A DNA stretch of 64,000 nucleotides from Escherichia phage Murica: the sequence record NC_041871.1; one strand, given 5' to 3'. Of this stretch, positions 1,513 to 56,973 are shown piece after piece. Every line of letters begins with the position of its first letter. The first letter of the stretch is position 1. The translations under genes and the position numbers were made by a program. The notes under the pieces are model-generated. The model had not been told where the DNA came from. It was given only the letters and a program-made list of their open reading frames with translations, and made no database searches.

Positions 1513-2448
1513 ATGACAAATGAGGAACGTATGATGAAGTATTTTAATGCAGATGACCTAGTAGACAAAGGTCTTGTAACCAGTCGGTATTATCCAGATC
1601 TTGGATTAAAGATCTATAAATATGCCAGAAAAGTATTCTACAACGATCTGTGGCATTTGTCTCCGCGTTTACTGGAGTGCCGAGGTATTGTTGTTGGCAA
1701 TGAGGGGAATGTTGTGGCATGGCCTTTCACAAAAGTATTCAACTTAGGAGAAAACTCCACCAACCTACCGGACAGTAAACTTGTTACTGCGGTAGAGAAA
1801 AAGAACGGATTCCTCGGTGTGGTATCATCTCATAAAGGTGAACTATTGTTCTCAACAACCGGGTCTCTTGATTCCCCATATTGTAACCTCGCAAAAGAAA
1901 CCATCAGGGAGCAATGTGGTAATTTAGATCTTATCAAGAAGGTTATGGGCAATGAAAACATGACATTCATGTTTGAAATTTGCCACCCTTCAGATCCGCA
2001 TATTGTTCAGGAAGATCATGGCGCATATTTGATAGGTTGCAGATATAATGATTCTGGAATAATGCTACCAGAAGCAGCTTTAGATGGGATTGCCAAATAC
2101 CTTGGTGCAAAACGTCCTCACACTGTGCGTGAAATTCCGTTCAGCTATGCAAAAGAATTAGCTGCAGAAACAAGAGGTGAAGGGTATATGATTCGTAAGC
2201 CTTACTACCCTTATGATCTGCAGCTGAAGATCAAGTCTCCATACTATCTGGCACGGAAGGCAGTAATGAGGGGTAAAGCTTGGAAGATTTGGGATGATGA
2301 TATCTTTAAACGTGTTGACGAAGAGTTTTACGGTATGGTAAAATTTATTCGTAGCAACTATACAGAAGATGTGTGGAATTGCTTATTAGAGCAGGAGCGT
2401 CGTGAGATACTGGACTACTATTTCCACAACGAGGACTATATGCAATGA
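1513..2448 (+). CDS. RNA ligase, Rnl1 (T4 RnlA-like) family
   Basis: Blocks LECRGIVV and KVFNLGEN resemble T4 RnlA as recalled from memory; candidate motif I VEKKNGF (KxNG); alternative start ATG 1531 has a GAGGA RBS. Confidence 0.65.
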   Translation: MTNEERMMKYFNADDLVDKGLVTSRYYPDLGLKIYKYARKVFYNDLWHLSPRLLECRGIVVGNEGNVVAWPFTKVFNLGENSTNLPDSKLVTAVEKKNGFLGVVSSHKGELLFSTTGSLDSPYCNLAKETIREQCGNLDLIKKVMGNENMTFMFEICHPSDPHIVQEDHGAYLIGCRYNDSGIMLPEAALDGIAKYLGAKRPHTVREIPFSYAKELAAETRGEGYMIRKPYYPYDLQLKIKSPYYLARKAVMRGKAWKIWDDDIFKRVDEEFYGMVKFIRSNYTEDVWNCLLEQERREILDYYFHNEDYMQ

Positions 2449-2795
2449 AGAAGTGGATTGTGTGGCTGGATGATTTGAGAGATCCGTCAAATTATGGACT
2501 CCCAGACGCTATTTGGCTGAAGAATTCCTCAGAGTTTATGGATTTTATTAACGATAAGGGAAAGCTCTACAGACGCGTTTCTGAGTGGCATATGGACAAC
2601 GACCTAGGAGAAGTATTCGAAGGATACGATTGCCTATCCATGTTGGAGGAAAAATTTGTATTCGGTAAGCCTCCAGTGATTGACAACGTGAAGATTTTCG
2701 TACATACTTCTAATCCATCGGCAGCTCGTAAATTTATGCTTGCTGCTGACTCATTCAAGAAGTTTGGAATAGAGATTAAACAAAACATCTACTGA
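2445..2795 (+). CDS. hypothetical protein
   Basis: 116-aa ORF overlapping the ligase stop (ATGA); hydrophobic N-terminal strand WIVWLDD; family not identified. Confidence 0.5.
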   Translation: MKKWIVWLDDLRDPSNYGLPDAIWLKNSSEFMDFINDKGKLYRRVSEWHMDNDLGEVFEGYDCLSMLEEKFVFGKPPVIDNVKIFVHTSNPSAARKFMLAADSFKKFGIEIKQNIY

Positions 2796-2803
2796 GGACA
2801 CTT

Positions 2804-3565
2804 ATGCGACGACTGATTATTATCTCCGGTGCTGGTTTGAGCGCTGAATCTGGTATTCCCACTTTCCGATCTGGTAGCACTGCAATGTGGGAGAATTTCA
2901 GCATCGATGAGGTGTGCAACATCCACACCTTTGCCAAGAACTACTATAAGGTGCATGACTTTTACAATGCACGTCGTGTAGCTCTGGGCAGTGTTGATCC
3001 TAACCTTGCACATCTTCGGATCGCTGAGTGGTATTCCCGCTGGTCTGGTCGTGTGATCAACCTTACCACCAATGTAGATGATTTGCTGGAGCGTGCTGGT
3101 GTAAAACATGAAGATATTTTACATGTCCACGGGTATTTGCCTGAAATCACCTACGAAGATGCTGAAGGTAACGATGTAATTAAAAATATCGGATACACGG
3201 AGGTAGATACAGGCAAGTATACCTGGGTTAAGCCTAATGTAGTGTTCTTCGGTGAGGTTGCTCCTAAGTATACAGACATGTATGACCTGTTGACATCTCT
3301 CACAAGCAATGATATGGTGATCCTGGTGGGTTGTTCTAACACAGTTATTAATTTTAACTGGGAATTGTTTCCTGCTACTTGTAAAGGCACAAAACTGCTG
3401 ATTGTAAACAAGTATGACTCGCAGAGTGCAGATGGAAGTGGCATTTCACGTAGCGACCTTTATCAATATGAGGATCGCGGGATCCCTGTATGGTTTAACG
3501 GTGCTGTTGACGCTTTCTCTGATAAAGCATTTATTGAAACTGTAGAAAACTTTATGGAACTTTAA
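2804..3565 (+). CDS. Sir2-family NAD-dependent deacylase/ADP-ribosyltransferase (sirtuin)
   Basis: Sirtuin motifs GAGLSAESGIPTFR, TTNVDDL..HVHG (catalytic His), VFFGE, VGCS, N-x-D; no CxxC zinc module seen. Confidence 0.8.
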   Translation: MRRLIIISGAGLSAESGIPTFRSGSTAMWENFSIDEVCNIHTFAKNYYKVHDFYNARRVALGSVDPNLAHLRIAEWYSRWSGRVINLTTNVDDLLERAGVKHEDILHVHGYLPEITYEDAEGNDVIKNIGYTEVDTGKYTWVKPNVVFFGEVAPKYTDMYDLLTSLTSNDMVILVGCSNTVINFNWELFPATCKGTKLLIVNKYDSQSADGSGISRSDLYQYEDRGIPVWFNGAVDAFSDKAFIETVENFMEL

Positions 3566-3578
3566 AAGGAGACCTTTA

Positions 3579-4292
3579 ATGCTGAATACTAAACTGATCG
3601 ACAACCTGGAAAAACTGTCTCAGCCTGAAAACTACCTTTGGTCTGCCAACTGGGTGGAAAACTGGAACCGTGTGGCAGCTAAAGTGAAAAAATCATACAC
3701 ACCATTCGAATTACAGCTTAGCTTCATTGAGGAAGAGTTCAATGAGGTTTTGGAAGAGCTGGAGAAAGGTGATGGTGGAGATCACCTGTTAAAAGAGGCC
3801 TGCGATCTTCACGTTGTCACAAGTTATGCCGCCTATCTTGTTAATGACAATCACGAAAAGTGGTCAAACCTGTTTGATAATCCACGAGGTCTTAAGTTCA
3901 AGATCGGTGAGTTCTATGATACACTGATCGCTGCGAAAAACACATCCAAGCAAAGAGCGTCAGCTTACCGCTTAGCGGAGTTGTCAACAGCTTTGCTGTT
4001 CCAGCTTCGCGGCGATGTGTGTGGGATGATGCGGAAGGTTCTCAAATCTAATGACAGTAAGTTTGCACGGATCAACCATCTACGGCATTCACACGGTGCC
4101 AGTGCAGATATGCCTGCTGAACAACTCATCGAGTTGGAGATTAAAGATCTTGAGCGTCGTTTTGGTGGTCGCTACGAAGGTTTTGTTGCTAAGGAAGAGT
4201 TCTACAACGGTAATAAAGTTATCATATTCCTTGACAGTAAAGGTAAGATCATGAAGCCTTCGAGCTTCAAGGATGTAACAGAGTATATTTGA
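3579..4292 (+). CDS. MazG-like nucleotide pyrophosphohydrolase domain protein
   Basis: N-terminal EExxE...ExxD pattern (FIEEEFNEVLEEL ... KEACD) typical of MazG/HisE all-alpha NTP pyrophosphatases; C-terminal half unassigned. Confidence 0.45.
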   Translation: MLNTKLIDNLEKLSQPENYLWSANWVENWNRVAAKVKKSYTPFELQLSFIEEEFNEVLEELEKGDGGDHLLKEACDLHVVTSYAAYLVNDNHEKWSNLFDNPRGLKFKIGEFYDTLIAAKNTSKQRASAYRLAELSTALLFQLRGDVCGMMRKVLKSNDSKFARINHLRHSHGASADMPAEQLIELEIKDLERRFGGRYEGFVAKEEFYNGNKVIIFLDSKGKIMKPSSFKDVTEYI

Positions 4293-52986: not shown

Positions 52987-53319
52987 TTAAGGTAGCCAGT
53001 AAACAATCTCACCTTTCAGCTTCATATCGTTTCCAACATAAATTTCCCAGCCATCCATCTTAGCAACTGTAGGCCCAAAGTCATCCGCACCCCTTACCTC
53101 TTTCCAGGCTCCGTAGTCAGGTTGCCAGATATAGAATCCACCTTCTTTGTCCCATGCTCCGTACACTACGTTTAACAAGTTTCCCATTGCAACAATGGTG
53201 GGCCGTGGGAATAATACATCTACAGATGCGCCACAATTTCGGGTATCTTTTAAGTTGCAATCCCAAAAGATGTCTGCCAGTGTGGCGGCGATAGCTTTAC
53301 GTCTTTCCAAAGTTACCAT
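52987..53319 (-). CDS. hypothetical protein
   Basis: 110-aa ORF. Confidence 0.4.
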   Translation of the reverse strand: MVTLERRKAIAATLADIFWDCNLKDTRNCGASVDVLFPRPTIVAMGNLLNVVYGAWDKEGGFYIWQPDYGAWKEVRGADDFGPTVAKMDGWEIYVGNDMKLKGEIVYWLP

Positions 53320-53329
53320 GGCACGATAC

Positions 53330-53521
53330 TCACTTGTTGTTAAGAAGTTCTAAAACTTTCTGTTTTACTTTATCAAGATCTGTTGATTCAAAAACTGTGC
53401 GATATCCCCAACTTTGCCCGTAGGAGTGACTGCAATCCCCGTAGCACCATTGCTCAATTTGATAGTATTCAAGGAAGGGGTGCTGTCTAACTATGATACC
53501 ATCCCGGTTAAAAATTACCAT
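53330..53521 (-). CDS. hypothetical protein
   Basis: 63-aa ORF. Confidence 0.35.
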   Translation of the reverse strand: MVIFNRDGIIVRQHPFLEYYQIEQWCYGDCSHSYGQSWGYRTVFESTDLDKVKQKVLELLNNK

Positions 53522-53584
53522 AATACATCACTCTCTGTTAGTTTATGCATATATTATACACTGCAGTTTTCAGATGTCAATCTT

Positions 53585-53836
53585 TTACAGGTTACTCCAG
53601 TATAATCGGCATTTACATTTTGGGCAATGAGGTTCTTTTATGTAATAACCATCAGTCTTTGGAACACTTTTTGGTGCAGTTTTAAGATTGTACCTGGTAA
53701 AACATCGGAAGCAGGTTACCTCTCCCACCTGTTGATCGTTGATCCACTCACCAGAGTAAAGCTCTTTCTTGTTTCTCATAATTCTCTCCCAAATCCTCTG
53801 CAATCTTATACCAAAATCTCCAGCCAGAAAGCACAC
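53585..53836 (-). CDS. zinc-ribbon protein
   Basis: CFRC...CPKCKC cysteine pairs. Confidence 0.4.
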   Translation of the reverse strand: MCFLAGDFGIRLQRIWERIMRNKKELYSGEWINDQQVGEVTCFRCFTRYNLKTAPKSVPKTDGYYIKEPHCPKCKCRLYWSNL

Positions 53837-54031
53837 GGGAACACCTTGAGGATTGAATATTTACTTGGCTCGGAAGTTCTTTTTCCGTATGGTAGGTAGA
53901 AATACCCCCCCTGCAGATTCGAATATAGCTCCTTCGGTTGTATCTACCACAGCAAGAATTAAGATTTTAGTCTCCACAGTGCTCTCCTCTCTTAGTTGTT
54001 GTGGAAACTATATCACCTCAGAAGATGGTCG

Positions 54032-54490
54032 TCAACACTTTTTGTACTCTACTACAACCACATCAATATCTGTGGTTGCAAGATTAATTACATCTTCTAC
54101 ATGTTCCCACTTTAGACCGCCAATACCGCATCCAATTTTAGGAATGTAGAACGGCAATGACACACCTTTGAATACCTCGTTGACTCGCTCAAAACCTTTC
54201 ATTATTGAGAAGTATTCAGCATTGGGCCCTGGGTAGAACTGGGTATACAGGTTGATTCCATATACGACCCTGTTCTTGGCAAAATGCTCCCAACAAGAAA
54301 ACATACCCAGCTTGTCCAGATTACCATAGGCAGTCTCTTTGTCGGCTGCCAGTGCTTGAGGGAACTCACGGGCAATATCTTTCGCTATGCCTGCACCCAT
54401 TGTATGAAAGCAGTTACAACCGTGGATCAGGTGACCAGCACCGCTCTTAAAAAGGGAGATTAAATCTCCCGCTACAGTATCAATAATCAC
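54032..54490 (-). CDS. macrodomain protein, TARG1/OARD1-like (ADP-ribose removing)
   Basis: LIHGCNCFHTMGAGIAKDI and IPKIGCGIGGLKWEHVEDVI resemble TARG1 blocks as recalled from memory. Confidence 0.65.
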   Translation of the reverse strand: MIIDTVAGDLISLFKSGAGHLIHGCNCFHTMGAGIAKDIAREFPQALAADKETAYGNLDKLGMFSCWEHFAKNRVVYGINLYTQFYPGPNAEYFSIMKGFERVNEVFKGVSLPFYIPKIGCGIGGLKWEHVEDVINLATTDIDVVVVEYKKC

Positions 54491-54905
54491 GGTATGTCAG
54501 CTCCTCTTCCGCAATTTCAAAAAACTCATCCCAACCTTGTGGCATATTTGAGTTGCCGAAGTGGCTTTCATAGTAAAGGTTCTCACCACTTGGGAGATAG
54601 AAATCTGTTACCTCGTAGAATCCACAATCGTCGCACTCGCCTTCTTCAAACTTGGCCTCAACCTTAATACCTAGGAAGGTGAAAAGTTTATGGATATCTT
54701 CAGTTTCGAACTCCCAGTAGATATTGTTTTCCGCATCGGTGTAGAACTGGATCAGCAGACCATTATCCAGTTTACCAAAATATTCTGTGAAGTAACTACC
54801 TTCCCAGAAATCTTTATGACAAATAATATCCATGCGCTTGCCCATGATAAAGGTGTGGGCGTTTTGGGCATCGTCACGAATCAGTTTTGGCATTTCATAG
54901 ATCAT
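54480..54905 (-). CDS. hypothetical acidic protein
   Basis: 141-aa ORF overlapping the macrodomain gene start. Confidence 0.4.
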   Translation of the reverse strand: MIYEMPKLIRDDAQNAHTFIMGKRMDIICHKDFWEGSYFTEYFGKLDNGLLIQFYTDAENNIYWEFETEDIHKLFTFLGIKVEAKFEEGECDDCGFYEVTDFYLPSGENLYYESHFGNSNMPQGWDEFFEIAEEELTYRDY

Positions 54906-54973
54906 CTTAGTTCTCCGGGTTCAACAGGTGGTGGTGCTACAGGAAGATCATAAAACATAGCTATCACAGTCTC

Positions 54974-55171
54974 TTACACAGGAATTGCTTCAAACAGGCC
55001 GTTATCTATACCGTCCTTCAGATAGAGATTATATTCTATGTCGGTATCTGTATAAAGGGCAGCATCCAGCATTCTATCTGTGAGTCCATCCATTGGGTGG
55101 AGAAACCACCACCCACGCCAGTCAAAGTAACAGCCTGGTGCATCTTCTCTTACACGGATTCGATAAATCAT
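54974..55171 (-). CDS. hypothetical protein
   Basis: 65-aa ORF. Confidence 0.35.
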   Translation of the reverse strand: MIYRIRVREDAPGCYFDWRGWWFLHPMDGLTDRMLDAALYTDTDIEYNLYLKDGIDNGLFEAIPV

Positions 55172-55267
55172 GGGCAGTGGCCTCCTGTTAGTTATACATC
55201 CCAGTTTTCTTCGTTCATCACGTCCTCCCGTTCTATGAAGTTATAATTGCACACCTTTCCACCTGTG

Positions 55268-55684
55268 TCAACAGAAAACTTCAACAAACTCTTCCACAGT
55301 TTTAATGTCGTGGGAAAAAGGTTTACGGCTATAACGGGCAATAGCACTATCAACCACCGCCCGGTACTCCAAATCTTCAGAATATTTCATGAAGCATTGC
55401 AGCGTCTCTGGGCAGATAGCTAAATAGCTCCACCACCCTTCTTCAGATTGGTAGTCGAATCCCATACTTTCCAACCATGAAGCATATACTCCTGCACCCT
55501 CAAGCCAGTGAGTATTTTCATCCAGAAACTTGTTAATAGACATGTGAGCTTCTAAGCATTTATCCAGCTCTTTTCCGTTAACCAGCCACGCACTGACCGT
55601 GGCGCATCCAAGGTCTACAGATTGAGTTGACAGGTTGTATTGGTCATAGTTCTCAGGTTTAACAATGATATCTTCTAATGTCAT
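55268..55684 (-). CDS. hypothetical protein
   Basis: 138-aa acidic ORF. Confidence 0.4.
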   Translation of the reverse strand: MTLEDIIVKPENYDQYNLSTQSVDLGCATVSAWLVNGKELDKCLEAHMSINKFLDENTHWLEGAGVYASWLESMGFDYQSEEGWWSYLAICPETLQCFMKYSEDLEYRAVVDSAIARYSRKPFSHDIKTVEEFVEVFC

Positions 55685-55746
55685 TTTTTAGATCTCCTTA
55701 TACAAAAATGCCCCACCCTTTCAGGCAGGGCTATGTTAACTAAATG

Positions 55747-56973
55747 TTAAAATGGGATGTCATCATCAAAGACGTACTGTGCTGGATTCTGATCCATTGG
55801 GTCATCTTCCGCATCATTTACAGGAGGAGCGTCTACAGTGTTTTGCTGTGGAGCTGCTTCCTGTTTGGCAGCCTGAGGTTCTTGATGGTCAGTGGACTCA
55901 GCACCGTTCTTGATCCAATCGTACAACGGCTCAGCTAGATTAGTCAAGACATCTTTTGCTTCTGCAGTAATTGCCACTGCAAAATCATCAACTTTCGTTT
56001 TCTTGTCAATACGGCGACAAGCGTTCAACACCGCATTACCGACACTGGCACCTACTTCATCTTCAGTTCGGTTGGTGGCTTGAGCATACTCTTTCTTAAG
56101 CTCAATGGTGACTACGTGCAGTGTTTTAGCCACGCCCAGTGGGTCGTCTACCTTAAACCCGCGATCCAGGATGATCTGCAACGCATTGATGCTATGCCCC
56201 GTTTCCACACCGATAGGGTCGTAAGAGGATTTACGCTTGCCACCAGAGCCTTGAGTGCCGTTCTCTGCCTTAGGAGGATAGGCCTTGAAACCACTGATAA
56301 TGTTTCCGGTGTCTTTGTCAACAATGGCTGCAACACGACCACCTACCACCAGGTCTTTAAGCTGCTCATCAGTTACAACCATAGCACCTTCGCCAATCTT
56401 GTGGTCATTAACAGTAACCACGTTGCCAACAATCTGAGTCACATCACCATAGATGCGTAAAACGTCCTGATTGGCATTCTGCTGAGGTTTCTGCTTCTGG
56501 CCTTGTGATTGTGCACCTTGTTGCTGTTTTTGCTGCTGAGTCGCTGCTGGAGCCTCTCCTGCACCCAGCTTGACCATCTTAGCCAGTGAGCCTTTGTAAT
56601 AGGTCTTACCGTTATGCTCGTTTGCCTTCAAAGGAATATTTACGATCCATCCCGGCGTTACGGTTTCCCACTTGTCATCAATTTTAACAGAGACAGAGTC
56701 TTGATGACCAGGTTTAAGCAGCTTATCACCCATGCTGATCCAAACTTCTTCACCACCTTGAAGCAGGTTATCAGAGGAATCCAGTTCAGAAATCAGTAAA
56801 GAGATGGTGTGGCTGGATTCAATTTTCTTACCTTGCCACACAGTGGTTTTAATACCTGTTGTAGGATCAGCACCTTTGATAGGCTTGATGCTGACACGTT
56901 TAATCATGCCGTGAGCCAGTAAAACAGTTTCACGCGGATTCATCGGGTTAGCGAATTGTTGAATAACGCTCAT
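55747..56973 (-). CDS. ssb: single-stranded DNA-binding protein with host-type acidic tail
   Basis: C-terminus DDDIPF identical to the enterobacterial SSB tip; Gln-rich linker; extra central domain (408 aa). Confidence 0.6.
   Translation of the reverse strand: MSVIQQFANPMNPRETVLLAHGMIKRVSIKPIKGADPTTGIKTTVWQGKKIESSHTISLLISELDSSDNLLQGGEEVWISMGDKLLKPGHQDSVSVKIDDKWETVTPGWIVNIPLKANEHNGKTYYKGSLAKMVKLGAGEAPAATQQQKQQQGAQSQGQKQKPQQNANQDVLRIYGDVTQIVGNVVTVNDHKIGEGAMVVTDEQLKDLVVGGRVAAIVDKDTGNIISGFKAYPPKAENGTQGSGGKRKSSYDPIGVETGHSINALQIILDRGFKVDDPLGVAKTLHVVTIELKKEYAQATNRTEDEVGASVGNAVLNACRRIDKKTKVDDFAVAITAEAKDVLTNLAEPLYDWIKNGAESTDHQEPQAAKQEAAPQQNTVDAPPVNDAEDDPMDQNPAQYVFDDDIPF

Follow-up and report, generated by a model that had tools for sequence, protein, structure and literature searches.

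Which ADP-ribose modification, and on which molecule, would a small phage macrodomain remove? The question is raised by an open reading frame (ORF) on the minus strand of the Escherichia phage Murica genome (NC_041871.1), which spans positions 54032..54490 (stop codon included) of the 64-kb stretch of DNA analysed here, to which we refer as the window, and which encodes a protein of 152 amino acids. A first-pass annotation of the window had described the product as a TARG1-like macrodomain with the fold of the DarG antitoxin, had proposed that it could erase DarT-like ADP-ribosylation of DNA or proteins, possibly in concert with a sirtuin encoded at 2804-3565, and had put forward structure prediction and a check of the catalytic residues as ways of examining this idea. 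In our reading, which combines sequence comparison with analogy to characterized proteins, the product of the gene is probably an ADP-ribosylglycohydrolase of the AdfM kind, orphan and antitoxin-like, which removes DarT2-made ADP-ribose from the thymidines of single-stranded phage DNA (ssDNA). This reading is built on the gene itself, the fold and class of its product, the pattern of active-site residues, the orthology to T4 Tk.4 and the purifying selection to which the gene is subject.

Fold, class and family of the macrodomain protein

The protein matched the Pfam Macro profile (PF01661) with 25.9 bits against a gathering threshold of 22 (E=1e-5) and, over its full length, PHROG 335, a family labelled 'phosphatase' (E=1.4e-59). 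Its AlphaFold2 model, calculated from an alignment of 54 homologs, is that of a confidently predicted macrodomain (predicted local distance difference test score 93.2, predicted template modelling score 0.89), as the first-pass annotation had anticipated, and displays a three-layer alpha/beta/alpha fold with a mixed central sheet. This fold matches that of solved macrodomains: a Foldseek search returned 195 PDB chains at E<=1e-3, and the best 50 of them comprised 42 natural macrodomains and 8 designed serine hydrolases (OSH55 and related). The best solved structures were those of TARG1, Poa1p, DarG, BT1257 and SCO6735, with template modelling (TM) scores of 0.69-0.76.

Comparison of the family profile with proteins of known structure gave a similar picture. 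The profile matched TARG1 at E=3e-14, BT1257 at 1e-13, Mycobacterium tuberculosis DarG at 1.3e-13, SCO6735 at 1.8e-13, Poa1p at 2e-12 and Thermus aquaticus DarG at 9e-11, with members of this class ranging from 3e-14 to 2e-9; outside the class, the MacroD-like protein TTHA0132 was matched at 6e-5 and the coronavirus nsp3 macrodomains at 5e-4. The best-matching models in both NCBIfam (1.7e-12) and PADLOC (1.4e-13) were those of DarG; the DarG2 model NF048014 was matched over positions 4-144 of its 338 only, with a score of 47.3 bits against a cutoff of 250. Judged by its profile matches and predicted structure, the protein is a member of the ALC1-like/TARG1-like class (TARG1, DarG, SCO6735, BT1257, Poa1p) and not a macrodomain of the MacroD or viral type.

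By sequence, the product of 54032..54490 is a stand-alone macrodomain and the Vequintavirus ortholog of T4 Tk.4, which is also called AdfM. The two proteins have the same length, align in BLASTP over the full length (residues 1-150, 39% identity, E=1e-43), share the motifs HGCNC, NLYTQ and IG-x-GIG, including the invariant Gln, and belong to the same PHROG 335. The relationship is reflected in existing records: the GenBank and RefSeq entries of phage V5 name the ortholog 'Tk.4' and 'tk.4: phosphatase', and the T4 entry states of tk.4 that it 'contains A1pp phosphatase motif', the 'phosphatase' label of the phage family having its source in yeast Poa1p. The phages themselves belong to different groups (Straboviridae for T4 and Vequintavirinae for the window), and the T4 copy follows vs, whereas that of the window follows an ORF of 141 amino acids. 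Krischvirus vB_EcoM_G2494 (L008:2501-2956) connects the two, as the tk.4 slot in its syntenic regB-vs.1-vs-[macro]-tk order is occupied by an allele that is 69% identical to the rV5-type protein and 45% identical to T4 Tk.4. The rV5-type allele is thereby linked to the tk.4 locus, and the sequence identities suggest that adfM alleles have been exchanged horizontally between Straboviridae and Vequintavirinae.

The family is very large. A hidden Markov model (HMM) search of 1.84 billion representative sequences retrieved 17,993 at E<=1e-3, 8,466 at E<=1e-10 and 1,239 at E<=1e-30, the last figure being a count of clusters at 50% identity, and tblastn found homologs in 2,740 phage records, T4 included. 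Family members are mostly stand-alone proteins of ~150 amino acids. The single chromosomal bacterial homolog that we checked (from Pelagimonas, one case and not a survey) is a stand-alone gene among housekeeping genes with no toxin neighbour. Within the 64-kb window, the family HMM recognizes one macrodomain (4.2e-64, the next match having an E-value of 0.74).

Active-site residues

The two conserved blocks that had been noticed in the first-pass annotation are real, and a third can be added to them. Block 1 (HGCNCFHTMGAGIA, residues 23-36, 54383..54424, minus strand) forms the distal-ribose/catalytic loop, which carries H23, N26 and a G-x-G-I-A turn. Block 2, the added one (NLYTQ, residues 80-84, 54239..54253, minus strand), places Q84 at the position of the catalytic Lys in alignments. 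Block 3 (PKIGCGIGG, residues 117-125, 54116..54142, minus strand) is the glycine-rich diphosphate-binding loop. All three blocks are invariant or nearly so among 55-259 relatives. In the 259-member count, which includes 150 representatives from the exhaustive search, N26 is present in 258 and H23 in 252 relatives; Q84, G34, P117, G120 and G122 are each found in 256 and G125 in 249, and a Lys at position 84 occurs in none. Both ADP-ribose-binding Gly loops (G32-A-G34 and G120-C-G122-I-G124-G125) are kept.

Residues were mapped onto known macrodomains with the help of the TARG1 profile alignment and a joint MAFFT alignment that contained T4 Tk.4, SCO6735, M. tuberculosis DarG, PhiKZ gp104 and TARG1. 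The phmmer alignment with SCO6735 is out of register near NLYTQ, and the MAFFT alignment, which agrees both with the TARG1 profile alignment and with the published equivalence of SCO6735 Q85 and TARG1 K84, was used in its place. Q84 aligns with TARG1 K84, DarG K80, PhiKZ gp104 K78 and SCO6735 Q85; H23 is equivalent to SCO6735 H24, N26 to SCO6735 N27 and DarG N22, and G124 to D125 of TARG1 (in the loop GCGLDRLQW).

The catalytic Lys84/Asp125 dyad of human TARG1/OARD1 is replaced by Q84 and G124, and N26 stands where TARG1 has a Ser. Given these differences, the covalent-lysine mechanism of TARG1 cannot apply, close as the two proteins are in size and fold (PDB 4J5R/4J5S, Foldseek E-value 6e-10, TM 0.71-0.76). 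The DarG2 structures (T. aquaticus 5M31/5M3E and M. tuberculosis 5M3I) are also similar in fold (TM 0.74-0.76), but of the catalytic Asn and Lys pair of DarG2 (N22 and K80 in T. aquaticus) the Asn is conserved as N26 and the Lys has become Gln, and the protein has neither the C-terminal DarT-binding domain nor the adjacent darT of that antitoxin. On the other hand, Q84, N26, H23 and G124/G125 align with Q85, N27, H24 and the AGG of SCO6735. As far as alignment can tell, the active site is of the SCO6735 (Gln) type and not of the TARG1, DarG or chimallivirus AdfM type. The subtype named in the first-pass annotation has therefore to be split: the class assignment and the DarG-like fold stand, whereas the residue check yields the Gln/Asn/His set of SCO6735 instead of the Lys of TARG1 and DarG and the Asp of TARG1.

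SCO6735 of Streptomyces coelicolor (PDB 5E3B, TM 0.72) resembles the window protein in being a stand-alone member of the ALC1-like class with a Gln at the Lys position, the same Asn and His, a Gly-rich loop and no DarT encoded alongside; it differs in having ~26% sequence identity and in being bacterial and SOS-linked, not phage-borne. SCO6735 efficiently removes DarT-made ADP-ribose from ssDNA thymidine and rescues cells from DarT (PMC9411070). Its Gln85 takes the place of the Lys and is held by Asn27, the Q85A and Q85E variants being inactive and N27S nearly so (PMC9411070).

Proteins are a substrate that these comparisons also bring to mind. The window protein would in that case be a mono-ADP-ribosylhydrolase that reverses Glu/Asp ADP-ribosylation by host toxins or phage-encoded transferases, and the rank of TARG1 as the top profile and fold match, together with the ability of SCO6735, which has the same Gln-type site, to strip Glu/Asp-linked ADP-ribose from PARP1 (PMC9411070), would fit such an activity. 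We nevertheless hold it to be improbable, as the Lys84/Asp125 dyad that TARG1 uses for protein substrates is missing, the genetics of T4 indicate a DNA-modifying system, and Pfam scans of 20 mid-size window ORFs revealed no ADP-ribosyltransferase (ART) (a selection of ORFs, not an exhaustive scan, from a window that represents under half of the genome).

The AdfM of chimalliviruses, PhiKZ gp104, has been found biochemically to remove DarT2 adducts from DNA and protects against DarTG2 (PMC13309987). It, too, is a stand-alone member of the class and encoded by a phage, but it shares only 22% identity with the window protein (BLASTP 8e-5), has a Lys-type site (FPTK with K78, in place of YTQ) and is imported into the phage nucleus. 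By their sequences, the PhiKZ-type and rV5-type macrodomains look like independent acquisitions from different branches of the class. Vequintaviruses are not known to form such a nucleus.

Three further residues, D50 (in 257 of 259 relatives), N80 and Y82 (256 each), are as strongly conserved within the family but have no conserved counterparts in SCO6735, DarG, TARG1 or PhiKZ AdfM; they could serve family-specific catalysis or substrate recognition. Their codons lie on the minus strand at 54341-54343, 54251-54253 and 54245-54247, respectively. With considerable reserve, one may go further and regard T4/rV5 AdfM as a large Lys-independent Gln-type branch, acquired separately from chimallivirus AdfM, whose Vequintavirus members are possibly dual-purpose, acting on DarT2 adducts as well as on by-products of the sirtuin/cREC genes described below (ADP-ribose-phosphate) or on protein- or RNA-linked ADP-ribose. 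In such a branch, catalysis or substrate recognition would be solved in a new way, through D50, N80 and Y82. We think this extended proposal unlikely to hold.

Predicted removal of DarT2 adducts from phage DNA

The preferred reading, in which the protein removes DarT2-made ADP-ribose from phage ssDNA, draws on the genetics of the T4 ortholog. In a November 2025 HIDEN-SEQ preprint, tk.4 emerges as the single T4 gene with conditional essentiality on a host carrying DarTG2; its clean knockout sensitized T4 to DarTG2, and the gene was renamed adfM for anti-DarT factor Macrodomain (bioRxiv 10.1101/2025.11.20.689424). By analogy with tk.4 and its requirement on DarTG2 hosts, the earlier suggestion of a candidate eraser that reverses DarT-like ADP-ribosylation of DNA is supported. 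That idea is right, but its kind is already known, since the V5 records name the gene Tk.4 and the T4 ortholog has been assigned an anti-DarT role. What the present analysis adds is the Gln-type active site, the separation of the gene from the RNA-repair module of the sirtuin, and a counter-example furnished by T5.

T4 and PhiKZ each carry a macrodomain, the deletion of which makes the phage DarTG2-sensitive (bioRxiv 10.1101/2025.11.20.689424; PMC13309987). T5, the phage that both DarTG papers use as their DarTG2-sensitive reference, has no macrodomain in its full genome (best tblastn E-value 4.6, best family-HMM E-value 0.1). In these three phages, the presence or absence of a macrodomain of this class thus tracks DarTG2 resistance.

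Like T4 tk.4, the Vequintavirus gene is a stand-alone early/middle phage gene that is dispensable on K-12. Insertions were tolerated at 31 of the 31 TA sites of bas54_0092, the ortholog in Vequintavirus Bas54, and at 45 of the 46 TA sites of T4 tk.4 (HIDEN-SEQ preprint supplementary tables). Comparison of the window gene with its FFH2 ortholog (84% identical) gave a ratio of nonsynonymous to synonymous substitution rates (dN/dS) of 0.11, at a dS of 0.99, which indicates purifying selection. Dispensability on K-12 combined with such selection is the profile that fits an accessory counter-defence gene. Another Bas54 gene, bas54_0108, for which the same preprint reports conditional essentiality on a clinical isolate, was considered as the macrodomain gene and ruled out, the ortholog being bas54_0092.

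We propose the following mechanism. DarT2 of the host DarTG2 defence would place ADP-ribose on thymidines of single-stranded phage DNA, and the ADP-ribose moiety would be bound by the Gly loops G32-x-G34 and G120-x-G122-x-G-G of the macrodomain. N26 would lock Q84 in a rotamer that hydrogen-bonds the ring oxygen of the distal ribose, and the N-glycosidic bond to thymine would be cut by a water-mediated, Lys-independent mechanism similar to that of SCO6735. Removal of the adduct would let replication and transcription of the phage genome go on. In phage JLBYU08, the upstream neighbours on the same strand are annotated as a single-stranded DNA-binding protein (SSB) and a DNA polymerase; the gene was fairly described as part of a replication-proximal block, and this location among replication genes fits replicating ssDNA as the putative substrate. 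That the Vequintavirus protein has the same substrate and plays the same role would be expected by analogy with T4 tk.4 and SCO6735.

Several points weigh against this assignment. Macrodomains are substrate-promiscuous, and at 39% identity to T4 AdfM the substrate specificity could differ; databases, moreover, label the family 'phosphatase' or 'Poa1p-like'. The protein does not have the Lys on which DarG and TARG1 rely, as does PhiKZ AdfM, whose activity has been validated biochemically. With respect to SCO6735, the residue equivalent to its Val25 is Gly24, and the SCO6735 mobile loop, in which Lys89 and Lys94 aid DNA binding, is 5 residues longer than the loop of the window protein, which contains no Lys; Val25 and the extended Lys-bearing loop are regarded by the authors of that study as specific to SCO6735 (PMC9411070). 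Finally, the genetic anti-DarTG2 evidence for T4-type AdfM comes from T4 alone, the role in Vequintaviruses being derived from orthology, and the removal of ADP-ribose from DNA by T4 AdfM is the preprint's inference (bioRxiv 10.1101/2025.11.20.689424).

Because the catalytic step of T4 AdfM is inferred, DarT2 might instead be neutralized mainly by stoichiometric binding of the toxin, as it is by AdfA and AdfB, and the observation that the catalytically dead Q85A variant of SCO6735 still inhibited DarT in vitro (PMC9411070) lends this some plausibility. We give it very little credence. N26, Q84 and the Gly loops are near-invariant in 259 highly diverged relatives, as expected of an enzyme, and the 152 residues of the protein, which correspond to the N-terminal part of the DarG model, leave no DarG-type C-terminal DarT-binding domain. 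Reversal of the mRNA ADP-ribosylation by CmdT was set aside as unlikely, because CmdTAC defends robustly against T4 despite Tk.4.

Should removal of DarT2 adducts be the function of the window protein, AdfM counter-defence would extend from T-even phages to Vequintavirinae, a group of coliphages with a broad host range that serve in phage-therapy and biocontrol work, and these would be predicted to plate on DarTG2-positive strains. Two different active sites now go under the name AdfM, a Lys-type, DarG-like one in chimalliviruses and a Gln-type, SCO6735-like one in T4-like and rV5-like phages. In view of the Gln-type site and the very large size of the family, predictions of mechanism, inhibitors or escape should not be transferred from DarG without testing Q84 and N26.

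The sirtuin cluster and the surroundings of the gene

The sirtuin lies 50 kb away from the macrodomain gene in a tight plus-strand cluster (1513-4292) that consists of a T4 Rnl1-like RNA ligase (1513-2448), a cREC cyclic-phosphate-processing domain (2445-2795), the Sir2 sirtuin (2804-3565, Pfam 6.9e-28) and a MazG-like nucleotide pyrophosphohydrolase (3579-4292). The first three were the only matches in the Pfam scans of the 20 mid-size ORFs. The same neighbourhood in 'Escherichia phage V5' has been predicted to be an RNA-repair system that depends on nicotinamide adenine dinucleotide (Iyer et al. 2022, PMC9503650). The sirtuin family is represented in 1,010 phage records, mostly of T5-like and rV5-like phages. 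The T5 genome encodes a sirtuin ortholog that is 57% identical to that of the window (E=1e-98) and, as described above, no macrodomain; T4 presumably presents the opposite case, with a macrodomain and no sirtuin. The T5 sirtuin does not support an obligate sirtuin-macrodomain partnership, and the joint action of the two window proteins envisaged earlier finds no support in a sirtuin gene that is 50 kb distant and part of an RNA-repair cluster.

This cluster also bears on the possibility that the macrodomain acts mainly on soluble ADP-ribose derivatives, namely ADP-ribose-1''-phosphate (as Poa1p does), O-acetyl-ADP-ribose, ADP-ribose-based toxic or signalling molecules, or by-products left by the sirtuin/cREC RNA-repair module that the phage itself encodes at 1513-4292. 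The RNA ligase-cREC-Sir2-MazG cluster is predicted to yield ADP-ribose-phosphate by-products, PHROG 335 and many GenBank records carry the terms 'phosphatase' or 'Poa1p-like', and Poa1p (PDB 6LFQ-6LFU) is one of the best matches in both sequence and fold, the N-terminal motif I-H-x-C-N-C...G-x-G-I-A being common to both proteins. Poa1p is, however, larger and contains insertions (TM normalised to the target 0.64-0.66), acts on a soluble tRNA-splicing metabolite, and presumably has a Ser and not a Gln at the Q84 position. The sirtuin of T5 evidently needs no macrodomain, the 50 kb between the gene and the cluster argue against a common module, and genetics has so far linked the family to a single phenotype, DarTG2 sensitivity. 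We therefore rate an activity mainly on soluble derivatives as unlikely, although somewhat less so than one on proteins, and retain DarT2 adducts on phage ssDNA as the probable substrate.

Other ADP-ribose-related functions were sought in the same set of 20 mid-size ORFs, in which Pfam recognized no NADAR (AdfN-like), ART or other ADP-ribose domain besides Sir2; NADAR has been reported in three other Vequintavirinae, Bas60-62. ARAGORN predicted no tRNA genes in the whole window.

The macrodomain gene begins with a GTG codon at 54488-54490 (minus strand), 10 nucleotides upstream of which there is a Shine-Dalgarno-like GAGGAG (54501..54506, minus strand), and the same MII... start position is used by the aligned homologs. 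There is an overlap of 11 nucleotides between this start and the stop codon of the ORF upstream (54480..54905, minus strand, 141 amino acids), which suggests translational coupling, and the two genes are probably co-transcribed. The upstream ORF belongs to PHROG 8157, to which no function is assigned, and gave no match in a Pfam scan; its order relative to the macrodomain gene is identical in FFH2, JLBYU08 and Bas54. All nearest neighbours of the macrodomain gene are small phage ORFs without assigned function, and Pfam scans found no ART domain or darT gene among them.

A scan for promoters and terminators gave 13 promoter-like sites compared to the 7.7 +/- 3.2 expected, a difference that is not significant. 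There is a perfect sigma-70 consensus promoter (TTGACA, 16 nucleotides, TATAAT; 12/12) at 53553-53580 on the minus strand, downstream of the macrodomain gene and just upstream of a small ORF (53330-53521). The gene annotated as SSB is directly followed by a strong terminator-like hairpin at 55710-55731 (minus strand). Another such hairpin (54454-54470, minus strand), formed by GGGAGATTTAATCTCCC and followed by TTTTTAAG, lies within the 5' coding end of the macrodomain gene, in codons 7-13; chance probably accounts for it, although it could attenuate transcription.

The window derives from a Vequintavirus (rV5-like) coliphage: the 3 kb surrounding the macrodomain gene share 95-99% identity with ~35 Escherichia phages of this genus, phage MiataMamis being at 99.1%. 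MiataMamis, WalterGehring and JLBYU08 carry the macrodomain gene in a form 100% identical to that of the window, and a copy of it (at least 80% of the gene covered) is present in 115 of the 119 matching related records.

Within the stretch that matches window positions 53000-56000, several close relatives (MiataMamis, SophiaRose, WalterGehring, navn, Mangalyan and Bas54) contain an extra ~640 bp for which the annotation is homing endonuclease or endonuclease VII. In Bas54 this is bas54_0088, which separates the SSB gene from the ORF that follows; the window is without this insertion (region compared, ~55685-55746). Sixteen records in the range MG065639-MG065666 are named 'Campylobacter phage' (host C. 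jejuni) but are 88-100% identical to E. coli Vequintaviruses in this region. These records are unannotated, one of them carries a sirtuin 100% identical to that of the window, and they are probably mislabelled or contaminant assemblies.

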